Shown here piece by piece: positions 3,020-15,516 of a DNA stretch of 64,000 nt. Every line of letters starts with the position of its first letter. Positions within the stretch are counted from its first letter, which is position 1. Below the pieces are notes generated by a model that ran no database searches, had not been told where the DNA came from, and was given only the letters and a program-made list of their open reading frames with translations. This DNA is from a virus (lineage: Duplodnaviria > Caudoviricetes). A program made the translations under genes and the position numbers. The stretch lies in IMG/VR virus record IMGVR_UViG_3300011152_000015, positions 27,189 through 91,188 of that record; one strand, 5' to 3'.

Positions 3020-3767
3020 CGCCCGCCTCCACCCGCTTGAACTCGACGACCCAGACCCAAGGGTTAGCATCCCATGACTCAGCGCCGTTCATATCCGCCC
3101 AAAGGCGCTTAAACCGGTCACGGGGCTGGTTCATCGCATTGAACAGCTCACGTTCGGCTCCGTCCCAAACATCAACATCACGGATGCCCTCAGGCCGCTC
3201 GACGCCCTCAGCAACTGCCTGATCCTCGCTGATGTCATGTAGGCGCTCGACGTGCACAGCGGTGATCTCCAGCAGGATGCGCGAGGCCCAGCGGGGCATG
3301 TGGATGCTGGGCTTCCAACGACACTGCATGTTGCCGTCCGGATCAGTGAATTCGCACGAATCACCGCTAGCACGATAGGAGCAATGCGCCGTGTTCTGGT
3401 AAGGCGACATGTCCTTCCACCAACTTGGGTCGGCTCGCATCTCGTCATCGTCGACAAGGGGGCCTTGCCACGCCTCCCGCACCCATAGCCGGTCGCCTGG
3501 CCGGCCATAAGGGCATGCTCCGAACTCGCCGAGCTCCATTGCGCACTCTTCCTCTGTCTCGCCAAACACGCAGAATCCATAGCGGGGATGACGCTGCCCG
3601 ACCGCGCTCCAGCGATGGCGGGTTTCCCCTTTTGAGGGATCTTCCTTTGGAATCTGTAGGCCCTTTACTGGCCGCCGCGTCACCGTCTTACGGCCTTCAA
3701 GAATCGCGCGAACCATGGCGCTATCGAACAGAATCGGACGCTCTTTAACCACGACGCACCCCCGCAT
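3012..3767 (-). CDS. ASCH/PUA-like phage protein
   Basis: ERPILF..MVRAILEGRKTVTRR, CPYG.PGDRLWVRE, WKPSIHMPRWASR, NPWVWVVEF motifs. Confidence 0.75.
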   Translation of the reverse strand: MRGCVVVKERPILFDSAMVRAILEGRKTVTRRPVKGLQIPKEDPSKGETRHRWSAVGQRHPRYGFCVFGETEEECAMELGEFGACPYGRPGDRLWVREAWQGPLVDDDEMRADPSWWKDMSPYQNTAHCSYRASGDSCEFTDPDGNMQCRWKPSIHMPRWASRILLEITAVHVERLHDISEDQAVAEGVERPEGIRDVDVWDGAERELFNAMNQPRDRFKRLWADMNGAESWDANPWVWVVEFKRVEAGDV

Positions 3768-3966
3768 CCAGTTTATCCAACAAGGTCTGGCAGTCGATGC
3801 ACGTCTGGCAGCCCGGTGCTGCTTCGCGTCGAGCCTGCGGAATCTCTACGCCGCACTCCTCGCAATGCGTAGCACTCGGCCCGGTCGGCAGCTGCGCGCG
3901 GCGCGCCAAGGCCACCTCCAGCAGATACTCGGCCTGCTCATTGCCGCGGTCGATTACATCAGCCAT
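3745..3966 (-). CDS. TraR/DksA C4-type zinc finger protein
   Basis: MADVID start; CEECG.EIP.ARR...PGC.TCIDCQ. Confidence 0.9.
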   Translation of the reverse strand: MADVIDRGNEQAEYLLEVALARRAQLPTGPSATHCEECGVEIPQARREAAPGCQTCIDCQTLLDKLDAGVRRG

Positions 3967-4462
3967 GGGTCACCTCCCCTTCTGCAACGGCCTCGAGCAT
4001 CGCCAGCTCCGCCCCGGCCACGATGCCCAGCAGCTGAGCCACCACCTGGTTGGCGTGGTAGCGCAGCGCCTCCACCTCGTGGGGCAACCAACGGTCGTCG
4101 GCCACCCCCTCATGCAGGCTCTGCACGAAGTCGCCCTTAGCGCGCATCACCTGGGCCAGCCCCTTCAACGCCTCGCGCGAGGCGCGAACCGGCACCGGCA
4201 CATACGCCACCGCACCGGCCGGGCGCACCAAGGCCGCCAGCAGGCGCGGGTCCCGCGTGGCGGCCACGATCTCCTCCAGGAACTCAGGGTGGATGGGGCG
4301 GTTGTTGTTCGGGCTGACGCGCTTGTTCAGCTCGTCCGGGTCCATGCCGATGGTCAGCGCCACCGCATTCTGGCCCCCTGTTGCGTCGCGCGTGGCGCGG
4401 TACAGCGCCTGGCGGGTGTTCAGCACCGGGCCAGCGCCCGGTAATAGATCCTTGCGACTCAT
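3959..4462 (-). CDS. Phage CII-family regulatory protein
   Basis: N-terminal HTH-like segment; located downstream of cro. Confidence 0.7.
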   Translation of the reverse strand: MSRKDLLPGAGPVLNTRQALYRATRDATGGQNAVALTIGMDPDELNKRVSPNNNRPIHPEFLEEIVAATRDPRLLAALVRPAGAVAYVPVPVRASREALKGLAQVMRAKGDFVQSLHEGVADDRWLPHEVEALRYHANQVVAQLLGIVAGAELAMLEAVAEGEVTHG

Positions 4463-4522
4463 AGCGTTAATGCCCCCTTAACGCTGTAGCCAACCGCAGG
4501 GCGATTGCCCTACAGTTCGCTT

Positions 4523-4692
4523 ACAGCTCGCGACCCTCCCGATACGTGCTGTGTCCTCGGGTCGCGGGTTGAGGCGGTCGGGGTGGTACCCGACTACCGG
4601 ACCGCAGGAACCAGGGCTGACGCTTTGGTGAGTGAACTGCCCTTGGTTCCTGCCTCTACACAAGCCTGCCGCCGTAGCGACAGGCTTTTTTG
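4523..4692 (+). ncRNA. Predicted C4-like antisense RNA with two seed loops; ends approximate
   Basis: Stem CGCGACCC/GGGTCGCG encloses ACGTGCTGTGTCCT; stem GCAGGAACCAGGGC/GCCCTTGGTTCCTGC encloses TTGGTGAGTGA; intrinsic terminator at 4662-4691; both loops are complementary to repeated leader motifs. Confidence 0.7.
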
Positions 4693-4807
4693 CTTCTGGG
4701 CTGCTTGCCCGGCGCCGGCCCGATGGCGCTGGTGAGGCTCTCGGGCCGGCTCCCGCCGTGATACTTGGTTGTTGCTGTGCTGTGTCCTGTCGGCGGGCTG
4801 TGATTCG

Positions 4808-5068
4808 TTATGCGCGGCGCTCGCCTTGTCGGCGTTCGTTCTGACGGCGATCCCCATCGCGTCGCTCAACGCGCGGATCCGCCGCAATACCGCCTTCCGC
4901 CAGCTCTTGTGCGTAAAGAGCCTCGATTGCCTTTCCAGTGGTGTATCGGATATCCGCGCCATTAAGCGCCCGATGAATCGTCGGCTGGGTGGTTCCCACC
5001 GCGTCGGCGATCGAGCCTTGCGAGTAGCCAAGTTCCACCAGTCGCTCAATCATCTTTTTGATTTTCAT
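4808..5068 (-). CDS. Cro-like HTH repressor
   Basis: SQGSIADAVGTTQPTIHR HTH; divergent from cI. Confidence 0.8.
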   Translation of the reverse strand: MKIKKMIERLVELGYSQGSIADAVGTTQPTIHRALNGADIRYTTGKAIEALYAQELAEGGIAADPRVERRDGDRRQNERRQGERRA

Positions 5069-5080
5069 CGCCTCTATACC

Positions 5081-5158
5081 TATGCGCATTCGCATTAAAC
5101 TCGATAATACGCGGACGTATTAAATGAATCAATACACTTGCCTATACGTTTACGAATC
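5081..5158. promoter_or_regulatory. Three operators, consensus AATACG-N4-CGTATT, between cro and cI
   Basis: 5081-5096, 5106-5121 (perfect arms), 5143-5158. Confidence 0.75.
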
Positions 5159-5168
5159 GGGCACGGAC

Positions 5169-5834
5169 ATGAACATAGGCAAGCGGCTTGCAGCCATGCT
5201 GGAGGAGCTCGACTGGTCCGAAGGTGAGCTCAAGCGACGATCTGGCGTGCCGCAGCCCACCATCCATCGGATCATTACCGGCGAGTCTCAGGACCCCCGG
5301 CAAGGCAACGTTGAAAAGATCGCCAAGGCGCTTGGAGTAACTGCTCATTGGCTCCGCCATGGCGGCTCGAGGGACCAGAGCGTCAAGGAGGATATTGCGC
5401 TCTATGCTTCCAACGTCGAGCCCGGCCCACCGATCACCAGCCCGTATCGCGCCATTAAGATCGTAGGCACAGCACAGATGGGCAACGAAGGCTACTGGTA
5501 CGCCCTGGACGAGGCGGAAGGTTATATCGACGTACCGTCGCGTGATCCTGATGCCTACGCGCTACGGCTGAAGGGGCACAGCATGGCCCCAGCGATCAAA
5601 GATGGATGGCTGGCAGTAGTTGAGCCGAACAGCCCTCTGGTTCCGTTTGAGTACGTGATGATCCGCCTGCATGACGGCGAGTCCATGGTGAAAGAGCTTC
5701 TGCGCGCTACCGAAGATGAGGTGCTTGTAGGCTCCGTTAATAGCGAGTACGGGCGGCGCACGATTCCTACCGATCAGATCGAGCAGATCCACTATGTCGG
5801 CGGCATTGCTCCGCCCAGCAAGATTAGGCTTTGA
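5169..5834 (+). CDS. CI-like repressor (HTH plus S24 peptidase)
   Basis: SGVPQPTIHRI HTH; GHSMAP serine and MVK lysine of the S24 dyad. Confidence 0.9.
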   Translation: MNIGKRLAAMLEELDWSEGELKRRSGVPQPTIHRIITGESQDPRQGNVEKIAKALGVTAHWLRHGGSRDQSVKEDIALYASNVEPGPPITSPYRAIKIVGTAQMGNEGYWYALDEAEGYIDVPSRDPDAYALRLKGHSMAPAIKDGWLAVVEPNSPLVPFEYVMIRLHDGESMVKELLRATEDEVLVGSVNSEYGRRTIPTDQIEQIHYVGGIAPPSKIRL

Positions 5835-5875
5835 TGTGGCGCGCCGGCGGCTAGTCCGCCTACTACGTTGGATGC

Positions 5876-5900
5876 AAGCCCCGCACCTAGCGGGGCTTTT
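5876..5900 (+). terminator. Rho-independent terminator after cI
   Basis: AAGCCCCGC-ACCTA-GCGGGGCTTTT. Confidence 0.7.
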
Positions 5901-6081
5901 GATAAGCGATACGACTGTAAGCCATCACCTACAGCTGGCGTCATGATCAAGCCGTATCCGGCTCCGATCATTTCGATCATAGTTCGCTCGCAATAGCGCA
6001 GGACGCGCCCCGGGCCTGGAGGGCCGATGGACCACCGCGTGGATCGCGGAGCTTGGAGCACCGGGACAACAGCATCAATTC

Positions 6082-6106
6082 AGCCCCGCCTCGTGCGGGG
6101 CTTTTT
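6082..6106 (+). terminator. Rho-independent terminator
   Basis: AGCCCCGC-CTCGT-GCGGGGCTTTTTT. Confidence 0.7.
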
Positions 6107-6234
6107 ACACCCACGATACCCATCCCCCGGCACGACTCGCTGATTGCTGATCAACCTGCTGCCCGCCATCGAACGCATTATTCAGGCTTAGCCATACGAC
6201 CAAGGCGACTTGTTCTGTCGTGCATCCTTGCATA

Positions 6235-6250
6235 CTGTATGGACATACAG
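6235..6250. promoter_or_regulatory. LexA (SOS) box
   Basis: CTG-TATGGACATA-CAG upstream of the ATG at 6267. Confidence 0.8.
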
Positions 6251-6266
6251 CAGTAAGGAGCTTCTA

Positions 6267-6527
6267 ATGCCTTGGACACAGGCTCGCGCCATCACCCACC
6301 AGAGACATATTTCCAGCTACAACCGCCTGCTCCGGCGGGTGAACCATCTAATCACCACGCCACGCGCCAGGGCTGAACGCCAGGCGAACCTAGCCCGCCA
6401 TCCTGACGACCGGCCCGAAGATTGGGAGCGCCTCTTGGATGAGATTCAGCAAACCGAAGGCGTCTCGATGACGCTTCGGTCGGACGGCAGCATCCATGTC
6501 CGATGGTTATCAGTCGAAACTTGTTGA
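6267..6527 (+). CDS. DUF1654-like small protein, probably SOS-regulated
   Basis: SYNRL..RV..LI..PRA...W..LL.EI....GV.....DGS..V.W pattern; AGGAG RBS. Confidence 0.7.
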   Translation: MPWTQARAITHQRHISSYNRLLRRVNHLITTPRARAERQANLARHPDDRPEDWERLLDEIQQTEGVSMTLRSDGSIHVRWLSVETC

Positions 6528-6546
6528 GCCAGCCCAGACGTCCTTG

Positions 6547-6607
6547 AATTCGCAATCGAATAAAGTAATGCGCTGACGTATTGACTGGAATAATACGTTG
6601 ACGTATT
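6547..6607. promoter_or_regulatory. Three further operators overlapping the rightward early promoter
   Basis: 6547-6562, 6567-6582, 6592-6607 match AATACG-N4-CGTATT; TTGACT at 6581. Confidence 0.75.
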
Positions 6608-6643
6608 GTCTGTCGCGTACCCACTCACCAAGGGAACGCGACA

Positions 6644-6850
6644 ATGGACACAGCACGTCACAACACCACCCGCTGCCCGGTGTTCCTGCACCCGGCAGCC
6701 GCAACAAACCCCCGCACCGTCGCAAGCATCCAGCAGGCCACCGGCCAACTGATCGTGCTCGCCGGGGGCCGCCCGCAGCTCAAGCGCAACACCCTGCCCG
6801 CCCTTGATGATTACCAAGGCTTTGGGCCGTTTGACGGAGGTGCGGCATGA
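6644..6850 (+). CDS. Phage hypothetical protein, first gene of the early operon
   Basis: V.LHPAAAT.P..VA.IQQATG; stop overlaps the next start. Confidence 0.7.
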   Translation: MDTARHNTTRCPVFLHPAAATNPRTVASIQQATGQLIVLAGGRPQLKRNTLPALDDYQGFGPFDGGAA

Positions 6851-7425
6851 ACCATCTCCTCATCGGCCTGCACGGCCTCGCTCGCACCGGCAAGGACACA
6901 GCTGCCGCCTACCTGACAGCTCAGTTCGCGCTGTACAGCTACGCCTTCGCCGACCCACTCAAGGCCGCCATCGCCCAGCTTTTCAACCTCACCCATGAAC
7001 ACATGGAAGGCACGCTGAAAGAGGCCCTGCTGCCGGGAATCGGCAAGTCGCCTCGGCAACTGATGCAGCTGCTCGGCACCGAATGGGGCCGCCAGCAAGT
7101 ACACCCTGAGCTCTGGCTGCTGCTGGCCCAGCAGAACATTGGCTACCAGCTGGAAGTCGACCAGAGCCACTACAACGGCGTGGTGATCCGCGACGTGCGC
7201 TTCGAGAACGAGGCCAAGTGGATTCGCCGCCAGGGCGGGCATGTGGTGCACATCCTGCGCCCGGATGCACAAGCCGTAGCACTGCATTCCAGTGAAAGCG
7301 GCATTGCCATCCACGATAACGACTCCGTCGTGCACAACGAAGGCACCCTGGACGATCTCTATCGCCAGCTCGACCGCATCATGTGCGCCGCCGCATCCGC
7401 GCACCGCCATCGGTCGGTAGCCTGA
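6847..7425 (+). CDS. Deoxynucleotide monophosphate kinase
   Basis: GLARTGKDT, FADPLK, SPRQLMQLLGTEWGR, DVRFENE, HSSE. Confidence 0.9.
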   Translation: MNHLLIGLHGLARTGKDTAAAYLTAQFALYSYAFADPLKAAIAQLFNLTHEHMEGTLKEALLPGIGKSPRQLMQLLGTEWGRQQVHPELWLLLAQQNIGYQLEVDQSHYNGVVIRDVRFENEAKWIRRQGGHVVHILRPDAQAVALHSSESGIAIHDNDSVVHNEGTLDDLYRQLDRIMCAAASAHRHRSVA

Positions 7426-7436
7426 GGCTCGCCGCC

Positions 7437-7709
7437 ATGAACCGCGACCTGACCCAAGCCGCCGCCGTGCTCGGCCTCGGCCCGCGCAAGCTGCGCCGCC
7501 AGCTACGCGCGCTGGGCATCCTCGACCACGAGGGCAAGCTCGCCCCGGCCTACCGCGACAAGGGCAACCTGTACGTGGACACCCGCCAGCGCTGGAACGC
7601 ATCCATCAGCAGCTGGACGAGCTACGGCGTGGTCATGAGCACTGAGCGCGGCATCGAGTGGCTGGCCAAGCAACTGGGCATCACCATCACCCGGAAGGAC
7701 GTCGCATGA
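7437..7709 (+). CDS. Antirepressor KilAC-like domain protein
   Basis: AA.VLGLGPRKLR..LR..GIL ... T.RGIEWL. Confidence 0.65.
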   Translation: MNRDLTQAAAVLGLGPRKLRRQLRALGILDHEGKLAPAYRDKGNLYVDTRQRWNASISSWTSYGVVMSTERGIEWLAKQLGITITRKDVA

Positions 7710-8101
7710 ACACCTGCATTGATGACGCCATCGGCGCGCTCAAACTCGTGCCGCTGCACTTCAGCCACCCCAGCATGATCAGCCGCGCCACCGTCATCGG
7801 CGCAGCCTGCGAGGCCCCGGCCCGGCTGGAGGCCATGCCCGCGCGCAGCAACGAACTGCTGGAGGCCTACCGCAAGGTGCGCCAGGTGCTGCGTGAGGGC
7901 GATACCGCCTACGTCACCCCTACCACCTGCCCCGAGCGCCCGTTCGGCGCCGTCGTGGTGGATGCCTCCGGCCGGCTTGCCGCCTCCGCCACTGGCAAAA
8001 CCATTGAAGGCCTCGCCGAACTGATCCGCCTGCGCCTCCCGGAGGCGAACCCGGCACACACCGCAGAGGGGCGCGGGGAGAAAGGAGGGCCGCAGGCGTG
8101 A
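7706..8101 (+). CDS. Phage hypothetical protein
   Basis: ATGA/GTGA coupling with both neighbours. Confidence 0.65.
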   Translation: MNTCIDDAIGALKLVPLHFSHPSMISRATVIGAACEAPARLEAMPARSNELLEAYRKVRQVLREGDTAYVTPTTCPERPFGAVVVDASGRLAASATGKTIEGLAELIRLRLPEANPAHTAEGRGEKGGPQA

Positions 8102-8361
8102 CCAGCACCTACCAACAACTCCAGCGCCGCTACGACCGGCCCTGCCTGCCGCTCGACGATGTGCGCCGCGAATACCTGCCCCACATCAGCAGCGATGAAT
8201 ACCTGATGGAGGCCATCCGCACCGGCACCATCCGCCTGCGCTACGTGCGCCTGGGCGGCTCCCGGCTCGGCCCCCCCGTTGTTTACCTGCGTGACCTGGC
8301 CACCTGGCTGGACGCGCACGACCCGAGCAACACCAAACCAGCCACTGACCCGGTGGCGTAA
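8098..8361 (+). CDS. PrtN-family DNA-binding protein
   Basis: L..RY..P.LPL..V..EY.PH...V.L.DLA.WLD. Confidence 0.75.
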   Translation: MTSTYQQLQRRYDRPCLPLDDVRREYLPHISSDEYLMEAIRTGTIRLRYVRLGGSRLGPPVVYLRDLATWLDAHDPSNTKPATDPVA

Positions 8362-8386
8362 CCACTGCAAAAGGACACAGCACGTC

Positions 8387-8734
8387 ATGAAACCTACCGA
8401 TACCAGCGAGTTCATCAACAGCCTCAACGCCGGCGTATTCGCCCAGCAAGTGGGTCGCGCCCTCTCCGACGTCGCCGCCGGCGTGGTCGAGCACGGCAAG
8501 AAGGGCAAGCTCAGCATCACCTTCGAGCTGAGCCAGATCGGCGAAAGCAACCAGGTGAAGATCAACCACAAGCTGGATTTCACCCAGCCCACCAAGCGCG
8601 GCAGCAAGCGCGAGGACACCGCCCTCGACACGCCCATGTACGTCACCGCCAACGGCCTGGAACTGTTCCAGACGGACCCGACCGCGCAGATGTTCAGCCG
8701 CGAGGAAGCGCCCGTAATCGCCCGCGAAGTCTGA
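8387..8734 (+). CDS. YfdP-like phage protein
   Basis: LNAGVF..Q...ALSDVA.GV...GKKG; TPMYV; paired with the DUF2303-like gene. Confidence 0.7.
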   Translation: MKPTDTSEFINSLNAGVFAQQVGRALSDVAAGVVEHGKKGKLSITFELSQIGESNQVKINHKLDFTQPTKRGSKREDTALDTPMYVTANGLELFQTDPTAQMFSREEAPVIAREV

Positions 8735-8785
8735 GCCGGCGCCTGACCCAGCAACACCCAAATCACTCACCAAGGAATCAACGCA

Positions 8786-9601
8786 ATGTCACTGACGAAA
8801 GAAACCATCCAGCACATCGAAGCCAACGCTATCGCCGCCCTTGGCGTCATGCCACACCAGCAGGTGCCGACGATTGCCCTGCCGGATGACATGAGCATCC
8901 ACAACCTCGAGCGCTACGCCGAGTACCGCGCCCGCTTCCGTGGCGCGCTCAACACCCACGCCCTGGCCGACTTCGCCCGCTACGTCGAGGCCCGCGACGG
9001 CGACGGCGCCCGCGGCTTCATCGACCAGGACCGCATGTCCTGCAGCATCATTTTCAACCTGGGCAATGACCAGCTGGCCGGCCACGGCGACGACACCGCC
9101 ACCCTTACCCTCAAGCCCACCGCCGCCTACAAGGCCCTGCTCGCCGCAGTAGGCCAGCGGCTCGACCAGCAGCAGTTGGCCGAATTCCTCGAAGACTGGG
9201 CGCCCAACATCACCGCCTTCGCTGGCGATGAAAAACTGAACACCGCCCAAGCCATCACCGGCATCCGCAAGATGACCATCAAGGCCACCAGCCAGCGCGA
9301 CAGCACTGTTGGCGACCTCAACCACGCCCGCAGCGCCATGGATGAAATCGAGGCCCGGAGCCAGGAAACCCTGCCGACCCGCTTCGAGTTCACCACGGTG
9401 CCGTTCGAGGGCCTGCAGCCCGCCACCATCACCCTGCGCCTGTCTGTCATCACCGGCAGCGATGCGCCCGTGCTCAAGCTGCGCTGGGTGGCCGAAGAAG
9501 CCCAGCGCGAAGAGTTCGCCCGTGAGTTCAAGGGCGTGCTGGAGCAGCAGGTCGGCGGCTTCGTTCCGCTCACCATCGGCACCTTCCAGCTCGGCGCCTA
9601 A
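8786..9601 (+). CDS. DUF2303/YfdQ family protein
   Basis: RARFRG, FNLG...GH.D.TA.L, Q.QLAEFLEDW, PFEGL. Confidence 0.85.
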   Translation: MSLTKETIQHIEANAIAALGVMPHQQVPTIALPDDMSIHNLERYAEYRARFRGALNTHALADFARYVEARDGDGARGFIDQDRMSCSIIFNLGNDQLAGHGDDTATLTLKPTAAYKALLAAVGQRLDQQQLAEFLEDWAPNITAFAGDEKLNTAQAITGIRKMTIKATSQRDSTVGDLNHARSAMDEIEARSQETLPTRFEFTTVPFEGLQPATITLRLSVITGSDAPVLKLRWVAEEAQREEFAREFKGVLEQQVGGFVPLTIGTFQLGA

Positions 9602-9657
9602 GCCACCACCCGCCGGCCTCACCAGCCGGCGGGCACTCACAACAGGGGACACAGCAC

Positions 9658-10176
9658 ATGAACCTCACCACCTTCCAAACCATGGCCTTCATCGGCATGG
9701 TCGCCGGCATCGCTATCGTATTCGGCATGGGCTACCTCGAAGGTCGCCGCCGCTCGCTCAACGACTGGCAGCAGTACGCCGAGGATTCACGCAACCAGGC
9801 CAACCAGCTGCGCGCCACGCTGCACCAGGTACGCCACGACCTGGACATCCAGCGCCACAACGCCGCCCAGGCCCTGGAGGCCATGACCGAGCAGCACGAC
9901 CGCCTCGCAAGCGAGGCCGCCACCCTGCAGCTGCGCCTCATCACCGCCCAGGAGCGCACCGAGGCCCTGCAAGCCACCGCCCTGAACGATGAAGCTGCCG
10001 AGGACCTGGCCGCCATGGCCGGCAAGCTCAGCCTGGCCGCCACCCAGTTCAGCCTCATGGGCGCCACCGACCAAGCCAGCAGCGCCCGCCACCTCGCCGC
10101 CAAGGCCCGCGACCTCAGTCAGCGCTACTACAACGCCACCCCCGTGCCGGCCCAGCAGCAGGAGCGTGCAGCATGA
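9658..10176 (+). CDS. Membrane-anchored coiled-coil protein
   Basis: N-terminal hydrophobic helix followed by an Ala/Gln-rich helical body. Confidence 0.65.
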   Translation: MNLTTFQTMAFIGMVAGIAIVFGMGYLEGRRRSLNDWQQYAEDSRNQANQLRATLHQVRHDLDIQRHNAAQALEAMTEQHDRLASEAATLQLRLITAQERTEALQATALNDEAAEDLAAMAGKLSLAATQFSLMGATDQASSARHLAAKARDLSQRYYNATPVPAQQQERAA

Positions 10177-11066
10177 TCAACGCCACCCATTACGTCATCG
10201 ACCTGGAAACCATGGGCACTGGCCCAGCCGCCGCCATCGCCGCCATCGCCTGCGTGGAGGTCACCCAGGGCGCCATCGGGCGCGAGCTGTACCACCGCGT
10301 GACGCTGCAGAGCAGCCTCGATGCCGGCGCCGGCGGCTCAGTCGATGCCAGCACCATCCAATGGTGGCTGCGCCAGAGCGAGGCCGCACGCGCCGAGGTT
10401 AACGGCACCCAAGCGTCCGTGAGCCTGTTCGATGCGCTCGGCAGCCTGAGCCTGTTCATGGCCCAGCAGGGGCACCCGAGCGAGATTCTGGTGTGGGGCA
10501 ACGGCGCCACCTTCGACAACGTCATCCTCGGCAGCGCCTTCGCCGCCTACGGCATGCAGCTGCCCTGGCAATTCTGGAACGACCGCGACCTGCGCACCCT
10601 GCTCGCCCTGTACCCCCAGGCCAAAAAGCTCCCGTTCGAGGGCACCAAACACCACGCCCTGCACGATGCGCGGCATGAGGCCAAGCAGCTGATCGCGGCG
10701 TTGCAGCAGCACGTGGCCTGCACACGCTCTTACGACCGGCCAATCCGCCCAATGACCATCGTGCGCGACGAGCTCGGACACTGGACCCACCCCGCCTGGC
10801 CGCAGGATGGAGAGGAAGACGCTATCCCGAAAACCTGGTTCGCGGCCCAAGAGCTTGAGTTGTTCATCGTCGATTTCGAGACCGACGCTTCTGAAGAACT
10901 GAACGATGCCTACTTCGAGCAAGGCAACCCTGACTGCAGCGCATGGCAGCCAAGCACGCCACCCGGCGAAGGGTGGTTCGTCTTCTCCCTCCACGATACC
11001 GAAGACGGTCCAGTGTGCATTTGGGTCCGTCCTGCGCAGCGTGCAGCAGAAGGAGCCGCAGCATGA
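10173..11066 (+). CDS. DEDDh 3'-5' exonuclease with an extra C-terminal domain
   Basis: IDLETMG, WGNGATFD, RDLRT, HHALHDA. Confidence 0.85.
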   Translation: MINATHYVIDLETMGTGPAAAIAAIACVEVTQGAIGRELYHRVTLQSSLDAGAGGSVDASTIQWWLRQSEAARAEVNGTQASVSLFDALGSLSLFMAQQGHPSEILVWGNGATFDNVILGSAFAAYGMQLPWQFWNDRDLRTLLALYPQAKKLPFEGTKHHALHDARHEAKQLIAALQQHVACTRSYDRPIRPMTIVRDELGHWTHPAWPQDGEEDAIPKTWFAAQELELFIVDFETDASEELNDAYFEQGNPDCSAWQPSTPPGEGWFVFSLHDTEDGPVCIWVRPAQRAAEGAAA

Positions 11067-11644
11067 AGATGGCCAAGCCTTCAGCTCAAGACATTGAAGC
11101 CGCAGAAGAACTGCACCAAGTGCTGCAGCTGATCGACGCCCGCTTCGGTGGCCCGCTCCAGAACCACGAGGCAGGCGACGACCTCGCCGTGTTGCTGGAC
11201 AACGGCACCAACGCCTTCGACAGCGACGACCTGCAGCACCTGCAGACGCTCTACAACCACTTGGCCCGCCTGCATCGCAACGCGCCCAACTACTACGGGC
11301 GCGTAATCGGCGGCATGCTGTGGGTGATCATGAACGAGGCCAATCAAATCCTCGATCCGAAGTCGGACTGCATCGACCTGCACCCACGCTTCCAGGAGAT
11401 GGCTGACCAGCTCAAAGAGGCCGAGCGCGGCATAGCTGCATTCAACGCAGTGATCAGCTACATGCTCGGCGAGGGTCGATGGGAAGAACCCTTGGAGTTC
11501 CTCCGCCTGTGGAACGAAGGCGACTTCGACGCCTTGCGAGCAGAGTGGCCAGACGCCCCGCAGGCCATCTACTACGCCGACCCACTGGCCGACCACGCGG
11601 CCATTGACGCAGCCCTGGACCGCGCCGACGAGGTATTGCCATGA
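11063..11644 (+). CDS. Phage hypothetical protein
   Basis: AGGAG RBS and ATGA overlaps. Confidence 0.65.
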   Translation: MKMAKPSAQDIEAAEELHQVLQLIDARFGGPLQNHEAGDDLAVLLDNGTNAFDSDDLQHLQTLYNHLARLHRNAPNYYGRVIGGMLWVIMNEANQILDPKSDCIDLHPRFQEMADQLKEAERGIAAFNAVISYMLGEGRWEEPLEFLRLWNEGDFDALRAEWPDAPQAIYYADPLADHAAIDAALDRADEVLP

Positions 11645-12240
11645 CCTGGATTCTCACCCGCACCGGCCAGCGCTTCGATCTGCTCCAGCCACGCGCGTCC
11701 CAGATTGCAGTGCTCGACATCGCCCACGCCCTGGCGCACCTGTGCCGCTTCAACGGCCACGCCAGTCGGCACTACTCCGTCGCCCAGCACAGCCTGCTGG
11801 TTGCCAGCATCGTGCCGCCGGAGCACCAACTGGCCGCCTTGCTGCATGACGCCACCGAAGCCTACGTCGGCGACATGGTCCGCCCGCTCAAGCAGGTGAT
11901 GCCCGAGTACCAGCAGATCGAACAGCGCATCTGGCTCGCCATCTGCGAGCGCTTCGACATCGCCCCGGAACTGCCGGAATGCGTGCGCGAGGCCGACATG
12001 ATCGCCCTGGCCACCGAACGCGCCCAGCTCATGCCTCACCACCCTGGCGAATGGGACTGCCTGGCCGGCGTTACCCCGCTGCCCGACGCGCTGGATCACT
12101 GGACGCCCCAACAGGCCCAGACCCAGTACCTCGATCGCCTGCTCGAACTGCTACAAACCACCCACCGCGCCCACGACCGCCACACCTGGGAGCGGGTCGA
12201 CGAAGCGCACGCAGGCCAGCCTGCGCCGATGTGCATGTGA
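11641..12240 (+). CDS. HD-domain 5'-deoxynucleotidase (YfbR/YfdR-like)
   Basis: DIAHAL..CRFNGH, YSVAQHS, ALLHDATEAY.GD. Confidence 0.88.
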   Translation: MTWILTRTGQRFDLLQPRASQIAVLDIAHALAHLCRFNGHASRHYSVAQHSLLVASIVPPEHQLAALLHDATEAYVGDMVRPLKQVMPEYQQIEQRIWLAICERFDIAPELPECVREADMIALATERAQLMPHHPGEWDCLAGVTPLPDALDHWTPQQAQTQYLDRLLELLQTTHRAHDRHTWERVDEAHAGQPAPMCM

Positions 12241-12244
12241 GGGC

Positions 12245-13030
12245 ATGGCCATGAGCGAAGAACTGAAGCCGTGCCCGTTTTGCGGGCAGCAAGAAGCGTT
12301 CGTCGAGCAGCTGGATTCCGATGCCTCGGTGGTGATCTGCCAGGGCATGGTTGACGAGCACAGCGCCTGCCTGGCGCGAGGGCCTGTCGGCGTGCAGGAA
12401 GACGAGCGTGAAGATCAGCCCGGCAAGGATGCTGCCATTCGGGAGTGGAACCGGCGAGCCCAGCCAGCAGAGGCGGAAGGGGTTAAGACCTGGCGGGAGC
12501 GAATCGTTGCCGCCCACCCCAAGAGCGAGCCCGGTTACTGGCCTGACGCGCTGCTGGTTGAGCACATGCAGCCAGAGATCGAAGAGCTTCGCGCCGCCCT
12601 GTCTGCCGTGACCGCCGAGCGGGATAGGCTGGATGAACTCAGCGAGTCCCTAGGCCGGCAAATTGTTGATGCCGGAAAGCGTGAGATTGCCTATCGAGAC
12701 GAGCGCGACCAGCTCCGCGCCGAGGTTGAGGCGCTGCGGAAGGATGCGGATCGCAAAGGAATGCGCATCAAGGAACTTGATCTGCTGTTCGGTCGCTACC
12801 TGCTAGCCATGAAGGCAGCGCTCATCGACGCGGATTATCGCGGAGACGAGGAAGGGATGCGGTGGATCTACAACAGCCTGGCAGGCCCTGGCGAGCTTCC
12901 GCCAGAAAACGAGAGCGACGCTCAAGCGTTCTTCGACCGGGAGATTAAAGCCGTGAACGACGGAATGGCTGAGGTTCTAGCGTGGCACAAGGCCGAGCGA
13001 GACGCCGCCATGGCTGCGAAGGAGGCGTAA
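12245..13030 (+). CDS. Lar-like zinc-ribbon N-terminus fused to a coiled-coil region
   Basis: ELKPCPFCG ... AIREWNRRA. Confidence 0.7.
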   Translation: MAMSEELKPCPFCGQQEAFVEQLDSDASVVICQGMVDEHSACLARGPVGVQEDEREDQPGKDAAIREWNRRAQPAEAEGVKTWRERIVAAHPKSEPGYWPDALLVEHMQPEIEELRAALSAVTAERDRLDELSESLGRQIVDAGKREIAYRDERDQLRAEVEALRKDADRKGMRIKELDLLFGRYLLAMKAALIDADYRGDEEGMRWIYNSLAGPGELPPENESDAQAFFDREIKAVNDGMAEVLAWHKAERDAAMAAKEA

Positions 13031-13212
13031 TGCAACCAGGCCGCCGCTCAGCCACCCGCAGCAAAGTCCCCGGCACGCTGCAAATGGGCCTTATGAAAGG
13101 CACCTGCGATATCTGCAAACGCCACCGTCTCGTTGGCAACCACACCGCCTGCTCTCGCCAGCGACAGGCCAAATACCGACACCTCTGGGAGGCGCCCAAC
13201 CAAGGCGCCTAA
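13030..13212 (+). CDS. Small Cys/His protein
   Basis: CDIC...R..GNH..CS motif; TAATG coupling. Confidence 0.55.
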   Translation: MQPGRRSATRSKVPGTLQMGLMKGTCDICKRHRLVGNHTACSRQRQAKYRHLWEAPNQGA

Positions 13213-13259
13213 ACAACACCCGCCGCCTCACCAGCGGCGGCAGCACGGACACAGCACAC

Positions 13260-14942
13260 ATGAACAACCTCTACCGCATTCACCCCCAGGCCGGCATGAA
13301 TTTCCACGGCCTGGTCATCGACAACTTCGCCGGGGGCGGCGGCGCCTCCACTGGCATCGAGCTGGGCCTCGGCCGGCCGGTGGACATCGCCGTCAACCAC
13401 GACCCCGAGGCCGTGGCGATGCACGATATCAACCACCCGCACACCCGGCACTACTGCGAATCCGTATGGGAAGTGGACCCGCGCGTGATCGTCGACGGCC
13501 GCCCCGTCGACCTGGCGTGGTTCAGCCCCGACTGCAAGCATTTCAGCAAGGCCAAGGGCGGCGCACCGGTGAAGAAGGAAATCCGCGGGCTCGCCTGGGT
13601 CGCCATCCGCTACGCCGCCACGGTCAAGCCCAAGGTCATCATGCTGGAGAACGTCGAAGAGTTCGTGACCTGGGGCCCGTTGGCCACTGACGGCCGCCCC
13701 TGCCCGAAGAACAAGGGCCGCACCTTCGCCAGCTTCACCAACGCTCTGCGCCGCCTCGGCTATCAGGTGGACTGGCGCGAGCTGCGCGCCTGCGAATATG
13801 GTGCTCCGACCATCCGCAAGCGCTTGTTCCTGATCGCCCGTTGCGACGGCCAGCCGATCGTCTGGCCCGAGCCCACCCACGGGGACCCGGCGAGCGAGGC
13901 GGTAAAGGCCAAGCGCCTGAAGCCCTGGCGCACCGCAGCGGAAATCATCGACTGGTCGCTGCCCTGCCCCTCGATCTTCGAACGCAAGCGCCCGCTGGCC
14001 GAGGCCACCCTTCGACGTATTGCTCGGGGCATCCAGCGCTATGTGCTGGAGTCGGCGAACCCCTTTCTGGTCAAGGTCAACCACGGTTACGACTACTTCC
14101 GCGGCCAGCCGCTGGACGAGCCCCTGCAGACCATCACCAGCAAGCTGGGCACCGGGCTGGTCGTGCCGACGCTGGCACCTTTCATCACAGAGCACGCCAA
14201 CGGCAGCACCCAGCGCAACATGCCCGCCGACGCGCCGCTGCGCACCATCTGCGCCCAGGTTAAGGGTGGCCACTTCGCATTGGTCGCCCCGACACTGGTA
14301 CAGGTCGGCTACGGCGAGCGCAAGGGCCAGGCGCCACGCGTGCCCGGCCTAGATAAGCCGCTGGGCACAGTCGTCGCCGGCGGGCAAAAACACGGCCTCG
14401 TCGCCGCATTCCTCGCAAAACACTACGGCGGCAACTACACCGGCCCAGGCAGCAGCCTGGAAAACCCACTGCCAACCGCAACCACCGTCGACCACAACGC
14501 GCTGGTGACCAGCCACCTGGTGAAGCTTCGCAACAACCAGCACAGCCAGGCCGTGACCGAACCCATGCCCACCCTCACAGCCGGCGGCGGGCACGTCGGC
14601 GAGGTCCGGGCGTTCCTGCTGAAGTATTACGGGCATGGCGACGGTCAGCCCCTGCAGGAGCCGCTGCACACCGTCACCACCAAGGACCGCCACGCCCTGG
14701 TCATGATCAAGGGCGAGCCCTACCAGATCGTCGACATCGGCATGCGCATGCTCGAGCCGCACGAACTGTTCGCCGCCCAGGGCTTTCCCGCCGACTACAT
14801 CCACAGCCGCACCGGCGGCGGCAAGAAACTCAGCAAGGCCGCCCAGGTGCGCATGTGCGGCAACAGCGTCTGCCCACCGGTCGCCGCCGCCCTCGTCCGC
14901 GCCAACCTCGGCCAGCAGCAGATTGGGGAGGAAGCGGCATGA
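13260..14942 (+). CDS. Orphan C5 DNA cytosine methyltransferase
   Basis: FAGGGG, SPDC, ENV, RKRLF, GNSV motifs. Confidence 0.92.
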   Translation: MNNLYRIHPQAGMNFHGLVIDNFAGGGGASTGIELGLGRPVDIAVNHDPEAVAMHDINHPHTRHYCESVWEVDPRVIVDGRPVDLAWFSPDCKHFSKAKGGAPVKKEIRGLAWVAIRYAATVKPKVIMLENVEEFVTWGPLATDGRPCPKNKGRTFASFTNALRRLGYQVDWRELRACEYGAPTIRKRLFLIARCDGQPIVWPEPTHGDPASEAVKAKRLKPWRTAAEIIDWSLPCPSIFERKRPLAEATLRRIARGIQRYVLESANPFLVKVNHGYDYFRGQPLDEPLQTITSKLGTGLVVPTLAPFITEHANGSTQRNMPADAPLRTICAQVKGGHFALVAPTLVQVGYGERKGQAPRVPGLDKPLGTVVAGGQKHGLVAAFLAKHYGGNYTGPGSSLENPLPTATTVDHNALVTSHLVKLRNNQHSQAVTEPMPTLTAGGGHVGEVRAFLLKYYGHGDGQPLQEPLHTVTTKDRHALVMIKGEPYQIVDIGMRMLEPHELFAAQGFPADYIHSRTGGGKKLSKAAQVRMCGNSVCPPVAAALVRANLGQQQIGEEAA

Positions 14943-15241
14943 CCTGCTCAATCTTCTTCAGCACCGAGCTCCCCAACGACCGGCCCCAGGTCAGCGGCGC
15001 CCTGCCCCGCGCACCGCAGCGCTGGACAATGGAATGGCTCGTCAAAACCCCAGACGGCCGCACCCACGTCAACAACTCACGCACCATCCAGCGCGCCACC
15101 GTCGCAGAGGTCAACGCCATCATGGCCACCACCATCGCCGACATCAAAGCCGAAATCGGCGAGCTGGCCACCTTCATCAGCTGGCGCCTCACCAGCCACG
15201 GCGGCACCAGGAAAAACCGCAAGGGAGGGAAGCGGCGATGA
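14939..15241 (+). CDS. Phage hypothetical protein
   Basis: ATGA overlaps at both ends. Confidence 0.6.
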   Translation: MTCSIFFSTELPNDRPQVSGALPRAPQRWTMEWLVKTPDGRTHVNNSRTIQRATVAEVNAIMATTIADIKAEIGELATFISWRLTSHGGTRKNRKGGKRR

Positions 15242-15516
15242 ACACCGCATTTCTGCTGATGGCGCAGTACAACGGCCAGGCGATTATCCCGCTGGAGCGG
15301 GTGTGCGCGGACTATTTCAGCCACCTGACGCCGGACAAGCTCCAGCGCAAGGTGGCCGCTGGCGAGGTCGATCTCCCGGTGGTCCGCATCGAGGGCAGCC
15401 AGAAGGCAGCCAAGGGCGTGCACCTCACCGACCTGGCGTCTTACCTCGACGAGCAACGGCGCAAGGCCGTGGCCGAGAATGACAAGCTCCACGGCCGATT
15501 CAAGCGGGCCAGCTGA
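15238..15516 (+). CDS. PrtN-family protein, probable excisionase
   Basis: MNTAFLLMAQY..AIIPLE.VC.DYF..SQKAAKGVHL.DLA.YLD; convergent with the integrase. Confidence 0.8.
   Translation: MNTAFLLMAQYNGQAIIPLERVCADYFSHLTPDKLQRKVAAGEVDLPVVRIEGSQKAAKGVHLTDLASYLDEQRRKAVAENDKLHGRFKRAS

Follow-up and report, generated by a model that had tools for sequence, protein, structure and literature searches.

Can one small RNA, encoded between two regulatory genes of a prophage, reach the translation starts of early genes lying kilobases away? The question is raised by the 345-nt spacer between cro and cII in a 64,000-nt stretch (the window) of the 91,188-bp viral record IMGVR_UViG_3300011152_000015. The first 16.8 kb of the window are the early half of a temperate Pseudomonas/Stutzerimonas-type prophage. 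An original prediction had placed in this spacer an RNA with two loops, a and b, whose complements recur at early-gene starts throughout the prophage. An antisense RNA of ~170 nt, read from the + strand of the spacer and controlling early-gene translation by pairing of its two loops at the start regions, is the probable answer. Four properties computed here carry it: conserved structure, the strand of folding, motif recurrence and loop–target covariation.

The window contains the complement of loop a, motif a (GGACACAGCAC), six times without mismatch: at 4546–4556 and 4777–4787 on the – strand, and 6646, 8373, 9647 and 13247 on the + strand. Across the 91,188-bp record there was no further copy, and none of a reversed control pattern; by arithmetic estimate an exact 11-mer is expected ~0.03 times per 64 kb. 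All six copies are sense to local transcription. Two lie in the cro–cII spacer and four at or near early-gene starts, the + strand copies being at or beside start codons 6644, 8387, 9658 and 13260. Allowing up to two mismatches gave 24 matches against 18.8 expected from shuffling, which was not significant; it is the exact copies, therefore, that carry the signal. For motif b (CTCACCA) the count is 21, where 8.1 ± 3.2 are expected, and none of 100 shuffles of the window reaches it. Eleven of the 21 fall within 4.6–15.2 kb, including 4626 (–), 4730 (–), 6624, 8766, 9618 and 13227. A longer b form, TCACTCACCAA, is exact at 8763 and matches at 10 of 11 positions at 6621. Folding predictions leave the motif a sites unstructured and place b in loops: CUCACCA makes up the entire 7-nt loop of a GC-rich hairpin at 9618 and at 13227, and lies inside a 9-nt loop at 6624 and a 17-nt loop at 4730 (–). 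Every coordinate of the original prediction was correct, for the start-region and spacer copies of a, now seen to be exclusive to these six places, and for the enriched CTCACCA motif with its three hairpin-loop sites at 9618, 13227 and 4730.

The spacer itself is highly structured. On the + strand, nucleotides 4500–4700 fold at –102.8 kcal/mol (z = –5.7) into three hairpins (H1–H3) and a GC-rich hairpin of terminator type followed by T6. Conservation was assessed in a cII-anchored sample of 72 viral and 54 bacterial loci, using a covariance model (R1) built from 16 diverse copies. R1 matched 53 viral loci at E < 1e-26 and six more weakly, each time just upstream of cII and antisense to it. The element was also present in ~30 Pseudomonadaceae genomes, from Stutzerimonas, Halopseudomonas and the P. 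fluorescens, P. putida and P. syringae groups. Pairing fills 89% of the cells of the R1 alignment, and double-sided changes occur in 41 of 46 pairs; none of 500 shuffles came as high, and controls with slid partners gave 34–46% pairing. A + strand open reading frame (ORF) at 4505–4735 was rejected as coding: indels are not multiples of three, and substitutions keep stems, not codons.

The strand of folding was assessed in two ways. Counted in + strand sense, G-U cells in the helices outnumber A-C cells 5.6-fold, 145 (in 28 pair columns) to 26 (in 8). Independently of the alignment, the minimum free energy of the + strand was below that of its complement in 36 of 38 unique sequences (mean –11.9 kcal/mol). 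In the adjacent 60-nt cII leader, from the cII ATG to the predicted RNA start, the – strand was the better folder in 25 of 29 unique sequences (mean 6.9 kcal/mol). The preference thus flips at ~4523, the predicted start of the small RNA; energies computed with the leader included gave a mixed preference, which became clear once RNA proper and leader were separated. Of 62 unique upstream regions, 59 have a promoter-like motif, TAGCC(A/G)-N17/18-TAYNNT, at a fixed distance (28–29 nt) from the cII ATG, with spacer sequences that vary. In the window it would direct a start at about A4523, 7 nt past the –10-like hexamer. Most lineages have a U-rich tract 3' of the last hairpin on the + strand. Taken together, covariation, strand flip, fixed promoter-like motif and U-rich tract argue for a discrete, conserved, structured + strand RNA of ~170 nt, convergent with the cro–cII transcript.

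The putative targets are listed in Table 1. The rightward operon (6644–15516, +) consists of overlapping genes, presumably translationally coupled, broken by four gaps of at least 25 nt. Every such gap, as well as the first gene, carries a and/or b; one 11-nt gap (7425–7437) has neither. Target 1 heads the coupled block 6644–8361, with an operator-like palindrome and a promoter-like site just upstream, and the predicted mRNA start coincides with the base of its b hairpin. Target 4 heads the coupled block 9658–13212, and target 5 the block 13260–15516, beginning with a C5 DNA methyltransferase gene. Motif a lies between –15 and +13 of the start codon, within the footprint of an initiating ribosome, and motif b 20–30 nt upstream of a, mostly in 7–9-nt loops of mRNA hairpins. 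The order on the targets is 5'-b...a-3' against 5'-a'...b'-3' on the RNA, consistent with antiparallel pairing. The proposed prophage-wide complementarity between the two loops and recurrent start-region motifs is upheld. The small RNA is in addition fully complementary to the cro–cII mRNA just upstream of the cII leader.

Table 1. Coordinates of the predicted small RNA, its putative targets and neighbouring features (window positions; SD, Shine-Dalgarno sequence; HTH, helix-turn-helix)
Feature	Position	Strand	Details
Predicted small RNA, ~170 nt	4523–4692	+	supported by fold z, covariance model, G-U excess, strand stability
H1	4524–4536/4559–4571	+	loop a 4544–4557
H2	4573–4582/4589–4598	+	
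H3	4604–4617/4639–4653	+	loop b 4625–4635
Terminator hairpin	4662–4687	+	T-run 4686–4691 after hairpin
Promoter-like element of small RNA	4487–4516	+	–35-like TAGCCA 4487–4492; 18-nt spacer; –10-like TACAGT 4511–4516
Target 1, 5' end of rightward operon	6611–6656	+	hairpin 6611–6617/6637–6643; b in loop 6621–6631; ATG 6644; a 6646–6656
Target 2	8372–8389	+	a covers SD and spacer of YfdP-like gene, ATG 8387; 14-nt loop-a complement
Target 3	8763–8788	+	b exact 11-mer 8763–8773 abuts SD of YfdQ/DUF2303 gene, ATG 8786; repeat family D17
Target 4	9609–9660	+	9-bp hairpin, 7-nt loop = b 9618–9624; a 9647–9657 directly before ATG 9658
Target 5	13220–13262	+	7-bp hairpin, 7-nt loop = b 13227–13233; a 13247–13257 before ATG 13260
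Second a/b module	4714–4797		between RNA terminator and cro stop codon
H5	4714–4723/4741–4750		CTCACCA 4730–4736 (–); stem covaries
H6	4752–4758/4791–4797		GGACACAGCAC 4777–4787 (–)
cII leader hairpin H0	4486–4524	–	both arms compensatory across lineages
cII leader SD hairpin	4463–4485	–	SD in loop; 3' arm abuts cII ATG 4462; arms co-vary
DksA/TraR-like ORF	3745–3966	–	downstream of cII
cII	3959–4462	–	CP76/186-type CII family; Pfam PF06892 (Phage_CP76) 7.6e-15; PHROG 101
cro-type HTH gene	4808–5095	–	C-terminal (D/E)RR-repeat tail
cI repressor	5124–5834	+	HTH and S24 peptidase; same orientation as, and downstream of, small RNA gene
Operator-like palindrome AATACG-N4-CGTATT	5106–5121		cro/cI divergent region
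Operator-like palindromes AATACG-N4-CGTATT	6567–6583 and 6591–6606		rightward early promoter
Rightward early promoter-like site	6582 and 6604		–35-like TTGACT 6582; –10-like TATTGT 6604; predicted mRNA start ~6616

Loop–target covariation in related prophages had been proposed as a check, and it was positive for both loops across lineages. Motif b falls into at least six types and motif a into several. The window, phage pAN and their relatives combine the H3 loop UGGUGAG with CTCACCA sites at early genes. The PG1 group combines UGGUAAG with CTTACCA, which recurs two to four times per early operon and elsewhere among the tabulated genomes was found in one, once. A Halopseudomonas-type group has UGGUAGG with CCTACCA. 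P. aeruginosa-type phages (relatives of LPPA56, Meadow, Lodos, Presto and Turba) have CTCTCAC, CTCTGAC and CCTCTAC types, each matched by two b-type loops of the phage's own element. CCTACCA and these three motifs show the same lineage-bound pattern as CTTACCA. The b type sometimes differs between close relatives. Loop a types GACACAGCAC, GACACAGCCA and AGACACAGCAA likewise each match their own targets, and in P. aeruginosa-type phages the loop a complement extends through the start codon. An unbiased screen was run on 51 bacterial genomes, collecting words from the 300 nt upstream of cII whose reverse complements recur at least twice in the early operon. With 11-mers it returned 66 words in 21 loci, against 0 for a same-sense control and 4 and 0 for two coding controls. 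The recurring words of a 9-mer version mapped to the loop a and loop b positions; the coding-control background at this length was too high, and the screen was rerun with 10–12-mers.

What we infer from these data about transcription, pairing in vivo, and the sign and timing of regulation can be put as a scheme. The small RNA would be transcribed from the + strand at ~4523–4692, convergent with and antisense to the cro–cII mRNA. Its H1 loop (a') would serve as an anti-ribosome-binding site, pairing with GGACACAGCAC over the Shine-Dalgarno sequence, the spacer or the first codons, and its H3 loop (b') would pair with CTCACCA-type motifs. Binding would begin with a kissing contact at b and continue at a, where pairing would keep the 30S subunit out; coupling would extend the block to downstream genes. 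Because each coupled block is headed by a site, one RNA could close translation of the whole rightward operon. On the leftward side, complementarity to the cro–cII mRNA together with the 4714–4797 module could lower expression of cII and the replication genes, and a duplex upstream of cII could trigger cleavage or decay of the leftward transcript, by analogy with lambda OOP.

Timing can be approached from the promoter. No CI/Cro operator was found near the promoter-like element of the small RNA; such operators stand at both early promoters. Because the element also occupies the place of lambda PRE and 186 pE, the RNA may be CII-activated, committing the phage to lysogeny. Alternatively or additionally, it may be made constitutively in the lysogen as a second immunity layer, and it could double as leader of a cI establishment transcript. 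The original prediction, which likened the RNA to C4 and P4 CI and presented it as a second layer of immunity, overstated both immunity and family likeness. A broader proposal is plausible, if somewhat short of probable. It holds that a large, undescribed RNA family of Pseudomonadaceae prophages, P. aeruginosa phages included, may act as an RNA master switch whose two loops block all independent ribosome-entry sites of the early operons; the b types would form specificity groups atop CI/Cro, and the PRE/pE-equivalent promoter would link CII to translational shut-off.

Two parts of the locus may add to this pairing. The second a/b module (4714–4797) would either serve as a target on the cro–cII mRNA or prolong the + strand RNA at its 3' end; its folding favours the + strand only weakly, in 28 of 40 sequences (mean –2.5 kcal/mol). 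The complement of its H5 loop matches the hairpin-loop targets at 9612–9630 and 13222–13236 over 10–11 nt. The H2 loop (4573–4598) retains a UGGUA core in all lineages, and the b targets of type-4 phages (CTACCACAC) overlap its complement; from its sequence, H2 may be a third pairing loop.

Several observations weigh against the antisense mechanism. The predicted RNA at ~4523–4692 stood up as a structured + strand RNA with loops a and b, but the free display of loop a did so only in part: a predicted 5-bp mini-stem partly closes it (unpaired probability 0.31–0.71). In the window, a simple sigma-70 scan did not call the small-RNA promoter, nor did a simple terminator scan call the hairpin at 4662–4691. 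T6 is found only in the window's own group; the tract is interrupted elsewhere and poor in L070, L044 and L058. The covariation has exceptions: in L010 the H3 loop has diverged by three mismatches with targets still CTCACCA, in L045 the H3 apex is lost and the targets are kept, and in type-4 phages the b copy in H5 does not track the H3 loop. The b of the H5 loop fits the hairpin-type targets better than the H3 loop does. A hybridisation-energy scan of both loops against the whole window lost the true sites among GC-rich chance duplexes. No wobble bias was seen at match edges (G-U 160 against A-C 201) or among single internal mismatches in 13-mers (33 against 37), counts that are dominated by chance matches and give support neither way. 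Finally, covariation alone cannot tell an antisense loop from an extra sense copy of the motif; strand evidence alone can.

This last point defines the main rival explanation, in which a protein, or the transcription or translation apparatus, recognises a and b as sense-strand signals and no antisense RNA exists. We consider it unlikely. Its reader could be a phage translational regulator, or the sites could belong to an N/nut-like antitermination system with the b hairpins as boxB and a as boxA. The spacer copies would then be nutR-like sense sites on the cro–cII mRNA, and the C-terminal (D/E)RR tail of Cro a candidate RNA-binding peptide. The sense orientation of all copies, the hairpin-loop setting of b, the lack of detected wobble bias and the nutL-like (5' end of the rightward operon) and nutR-like (just after cro) positions are all as it would have them. 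The tail is suggestive as well. Cro of the window ends in four (D/E)RR units (4808–4872, –) and Cro of relatives in four to five with a 5-residue period (Cro genes L003–L041). The tail is attached to at least four unrelated N-terminal domains, always stops next to H6, and from its sequence could bind RNA or DNA. Yet the + strand is the better folder for all of H1–H3 and the terminator hairpin, the reverse of the cII leader, and the U-tract 3' of the last hairpin is on the + strand. A separate protein would have to have co-evolved with each of at least six b types. An N/nut-type system has one boxA–boxB site per operon and an arginine-rich peptide; here one operon has five sites, all at start codons, which suits translation control over antitermination, and the tail is not found in several phages with the element and the a/b sites (pAN, L015, type-4 phages, L044, L045 and the P. 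aeruginosa group). As a general reader of the motifs the arginine-rich tail was rejected, many phages with sites lacking it.

The + strand element could instead be mainly the leader or attenuator of a CII-activated PRE/pE-type transcript running antisense through cro into cI, its hairpins and terminator setting the amount of cI. Antisense action would then be chiefly in cis on cro–cII, and the distant start matches secondary. The promoter-like element, 28–33 nt from the cII start, does point through cro toward cI (5124) in the same orientation, and its weak –35 and fair –10 are typical of activator-dependent promoters. The AATACG-N4-CGTATT operator is not near it, unlike at both early promoters, and weak U-tracts in some lineages would permit read-through. 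The cII gene is moreover of the 186 type, and 186 CII activates pE, convergent with lytic pR (PMC7708051). As the main function this is rather improbable, for it gives no reason why early-gene starts should repeat complements of the loops alone and change together with them; it can coexist with the trans-acting antisense RNA. Very improbable, by comparison, is a non-regulatory origin in which the motifs are conserved junctions between exchangeable gene modules, kept alike by recombination or gene conversion. The sites do sit exactly at gene-block boundaries, the phages are highly mosaic (several Cro types stand beside the same spacer, for example), and gene conversion yields concerted evolution of repeats. 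Identity over 11 nt is very short for homologous exchange, however, and such an origin would leave unexplained why hairpins covary and expose the motifs in their loops, why folding is strand-specific, why promoter-like and terminator-like signals frame the element and why a keeps a fixed distance from the start codon.

The nearest named relatives are phages PG1 and vB_PstS-pAN, both of Stutzerimonas stutzeri. Leftward, cII is followed by the DksA/TraR-like gene, orf251 and primase, a block of mutually overlapping genes, probably coupled in translation. The palindrome of the cII Shine-Dalgarno hairpin sits at about –49 from the predicted small-RNA start and, on sequence grounds, could also be a protein-binding site. 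Two terminator-like hairpins lie 3' of cI, followed by the second early promoter region with its CI/Cro operator-like palindromes. The rightward operon encodes a dNMP kinase, KilAC-like, PrtN-like, YfdP- and YfdQ-like proteins, an exonuclease, a phosphatase, a Lar-like protein, the C5 methyltransferase and an excisionase, and is followed by the integrase gene.

Three further observations were made along the way. Between the cI terminators and the rightward early promoter (6225–6527 region), an ORF of 86 aa (ATG 6267; PHROG 2707) is preceded, just 5' of its Shine-Dalgarno sequence, by a perfect LexA/SOS-box-like palindrome, CTGTAT-N4-ATACAG, at ~6229–6244. It is a possible SOS-controlled accessory or induction gene, judging by this box, and an arrangement that we take to be reminiscent of tum of coliphage 186. 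Genes 100%, 76% and 66% identical to cII occur on contigs L081, L085 and L086, binned as Bacteroidetes, Phycisphaerae and Litorilinea, respectively; these are probably mis-binned Stutzerimonas-type prophage contigs. The P. aeruginosa-type viral contig L058 carries, at 1098–1288 (–), a full-length match (181 bits) to RT-15, a reverse-transcriptase-associated RNA (Rfam RF03018).

How does the predicted RNA compare with known systems? In function it would stand closest to the C4 and P4 CI RNAs, to which the original prediction had likened it, but a family likeness did not hold: there is no Rfam match and the genomic arrangement differs. At gathering thresholds, an Rfam cmscan of the window gave no hits; at E ≤ 10, positions 4300–5200 gave four chance-level matches, none of them C4, and six related loci gave no C4 match. 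C4 of P1/P7 (immI; Citron and Schuster 1990, cited in PMC8198154) is a phage-encoded small antisense RNA beside a protein repressor, two loops of which pair with two boxes around a ribosome-binding site to block coupled genes. The two-loop, two-box plan recurs here, with loop a facing GGACACAGCAC at four start regions and loop b facing boxes 20–30 nt upstream. C4 is cut from the transcript it controls and acts on one target region (icd/ant). The element described here, in contrast, has a promoter-like element and a terminator-type hairpin of its own, lies antisense to the cro–cII operon rather than in the same orientation, and would act at no fewer than five separate sites spread over two operons. 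The two presumably also share the property that loop sequence sets specificity between related phages. The CI RNA of satellite phage P4 and its relatives (IsrK-type; seqA/seqB/seqC) is an RNA immunity factor in which a short sequence pairs with repeated sites on early transcripts. It differs in acting by premature transcription termination and in being processed from the leader of its own operon; the RNA here lacks an Rfam match to it, is located elsewhere and has its targets at translation starts.

By place and likely effect, other parallels are lambda OOP, the CII-dependent antisense RNA paQ, the PRE transcript antisense to cro, and P22 sar (PMC7708051, PMC5869508), all short antisense transcripts of the cro–cII–replication region that favour lysogeny. 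Lambda and 186 also have a promoter near the 5' end of cII facing back through cro to cI (PMC7708051), the place of the promoter-like element here. These RNAs act only on the transcript they overlap, whereas the RNA here would have trans targets kilobases away, recognised by loop complementarity. On the target side, the start-associated sequence (SAS) and extended SAS of cluster K mycobacteriophages are 11–13-nt identical motifs a few bases before many start codons; they too extend beyond the Shine-Dalgarno sequence, and a subset has an inverted repeat ~20–50 nt upstream (PMC11373665). Sequences and hosts are unrelated, and the role of SAS is described as unknown, without a known complementary RNA (PMC11373665). 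In our case a candidate reader, the antisense loops, is present in the same genome.

The initial contact proposed here also has precedents. In CopA/CopT of R1 and RNAI/RNAII of ColE1, complementary loops of 6–7 nt make first contact and further pairing follows. A first contact of this kind would suit the 7-nt CUCACCA loops and the H3 loop, although the plasmid pairs are strictly cis-encoded and control plasmid replication. In common with trans-acting small RNAs in general, the element shows conserved structure on the presumed transcribed strand, with the opposite strand as control, and seed–target covariation (exceptions being L010 and L045). No published description of it was found in the searchable literature on Pseudomonas phage antisense RNAs, start-associated motifs or OOP-like RNAs, which covers few subscription journals.

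To our knowledge, the textbook antisense immunity RNAs come from only a few enterobacterial phages (P1/P7, P4, P22 and lambda), each with one overlapping or adjacent target. If the antisense mechanism is correct, the RNA of the cro–cII spacer would be structurally unrelated to these; alone it would match every independent translation start of an early operon, and its specificity loops would have diversified in step with their targets throughout a bacterial family. The lysis–lysogeny switch of many Pseudomonas, Stutzerimonas and Halopseudomonas prophages would gain a post-transcriptional layer, and the RNA may define RNA-based compatibility groups between phages. The sequence data already contain natural compensatory mutants, and the mechanism offers a concrete, testable hypothesis for the unexplained start-associated motifs of other phages.

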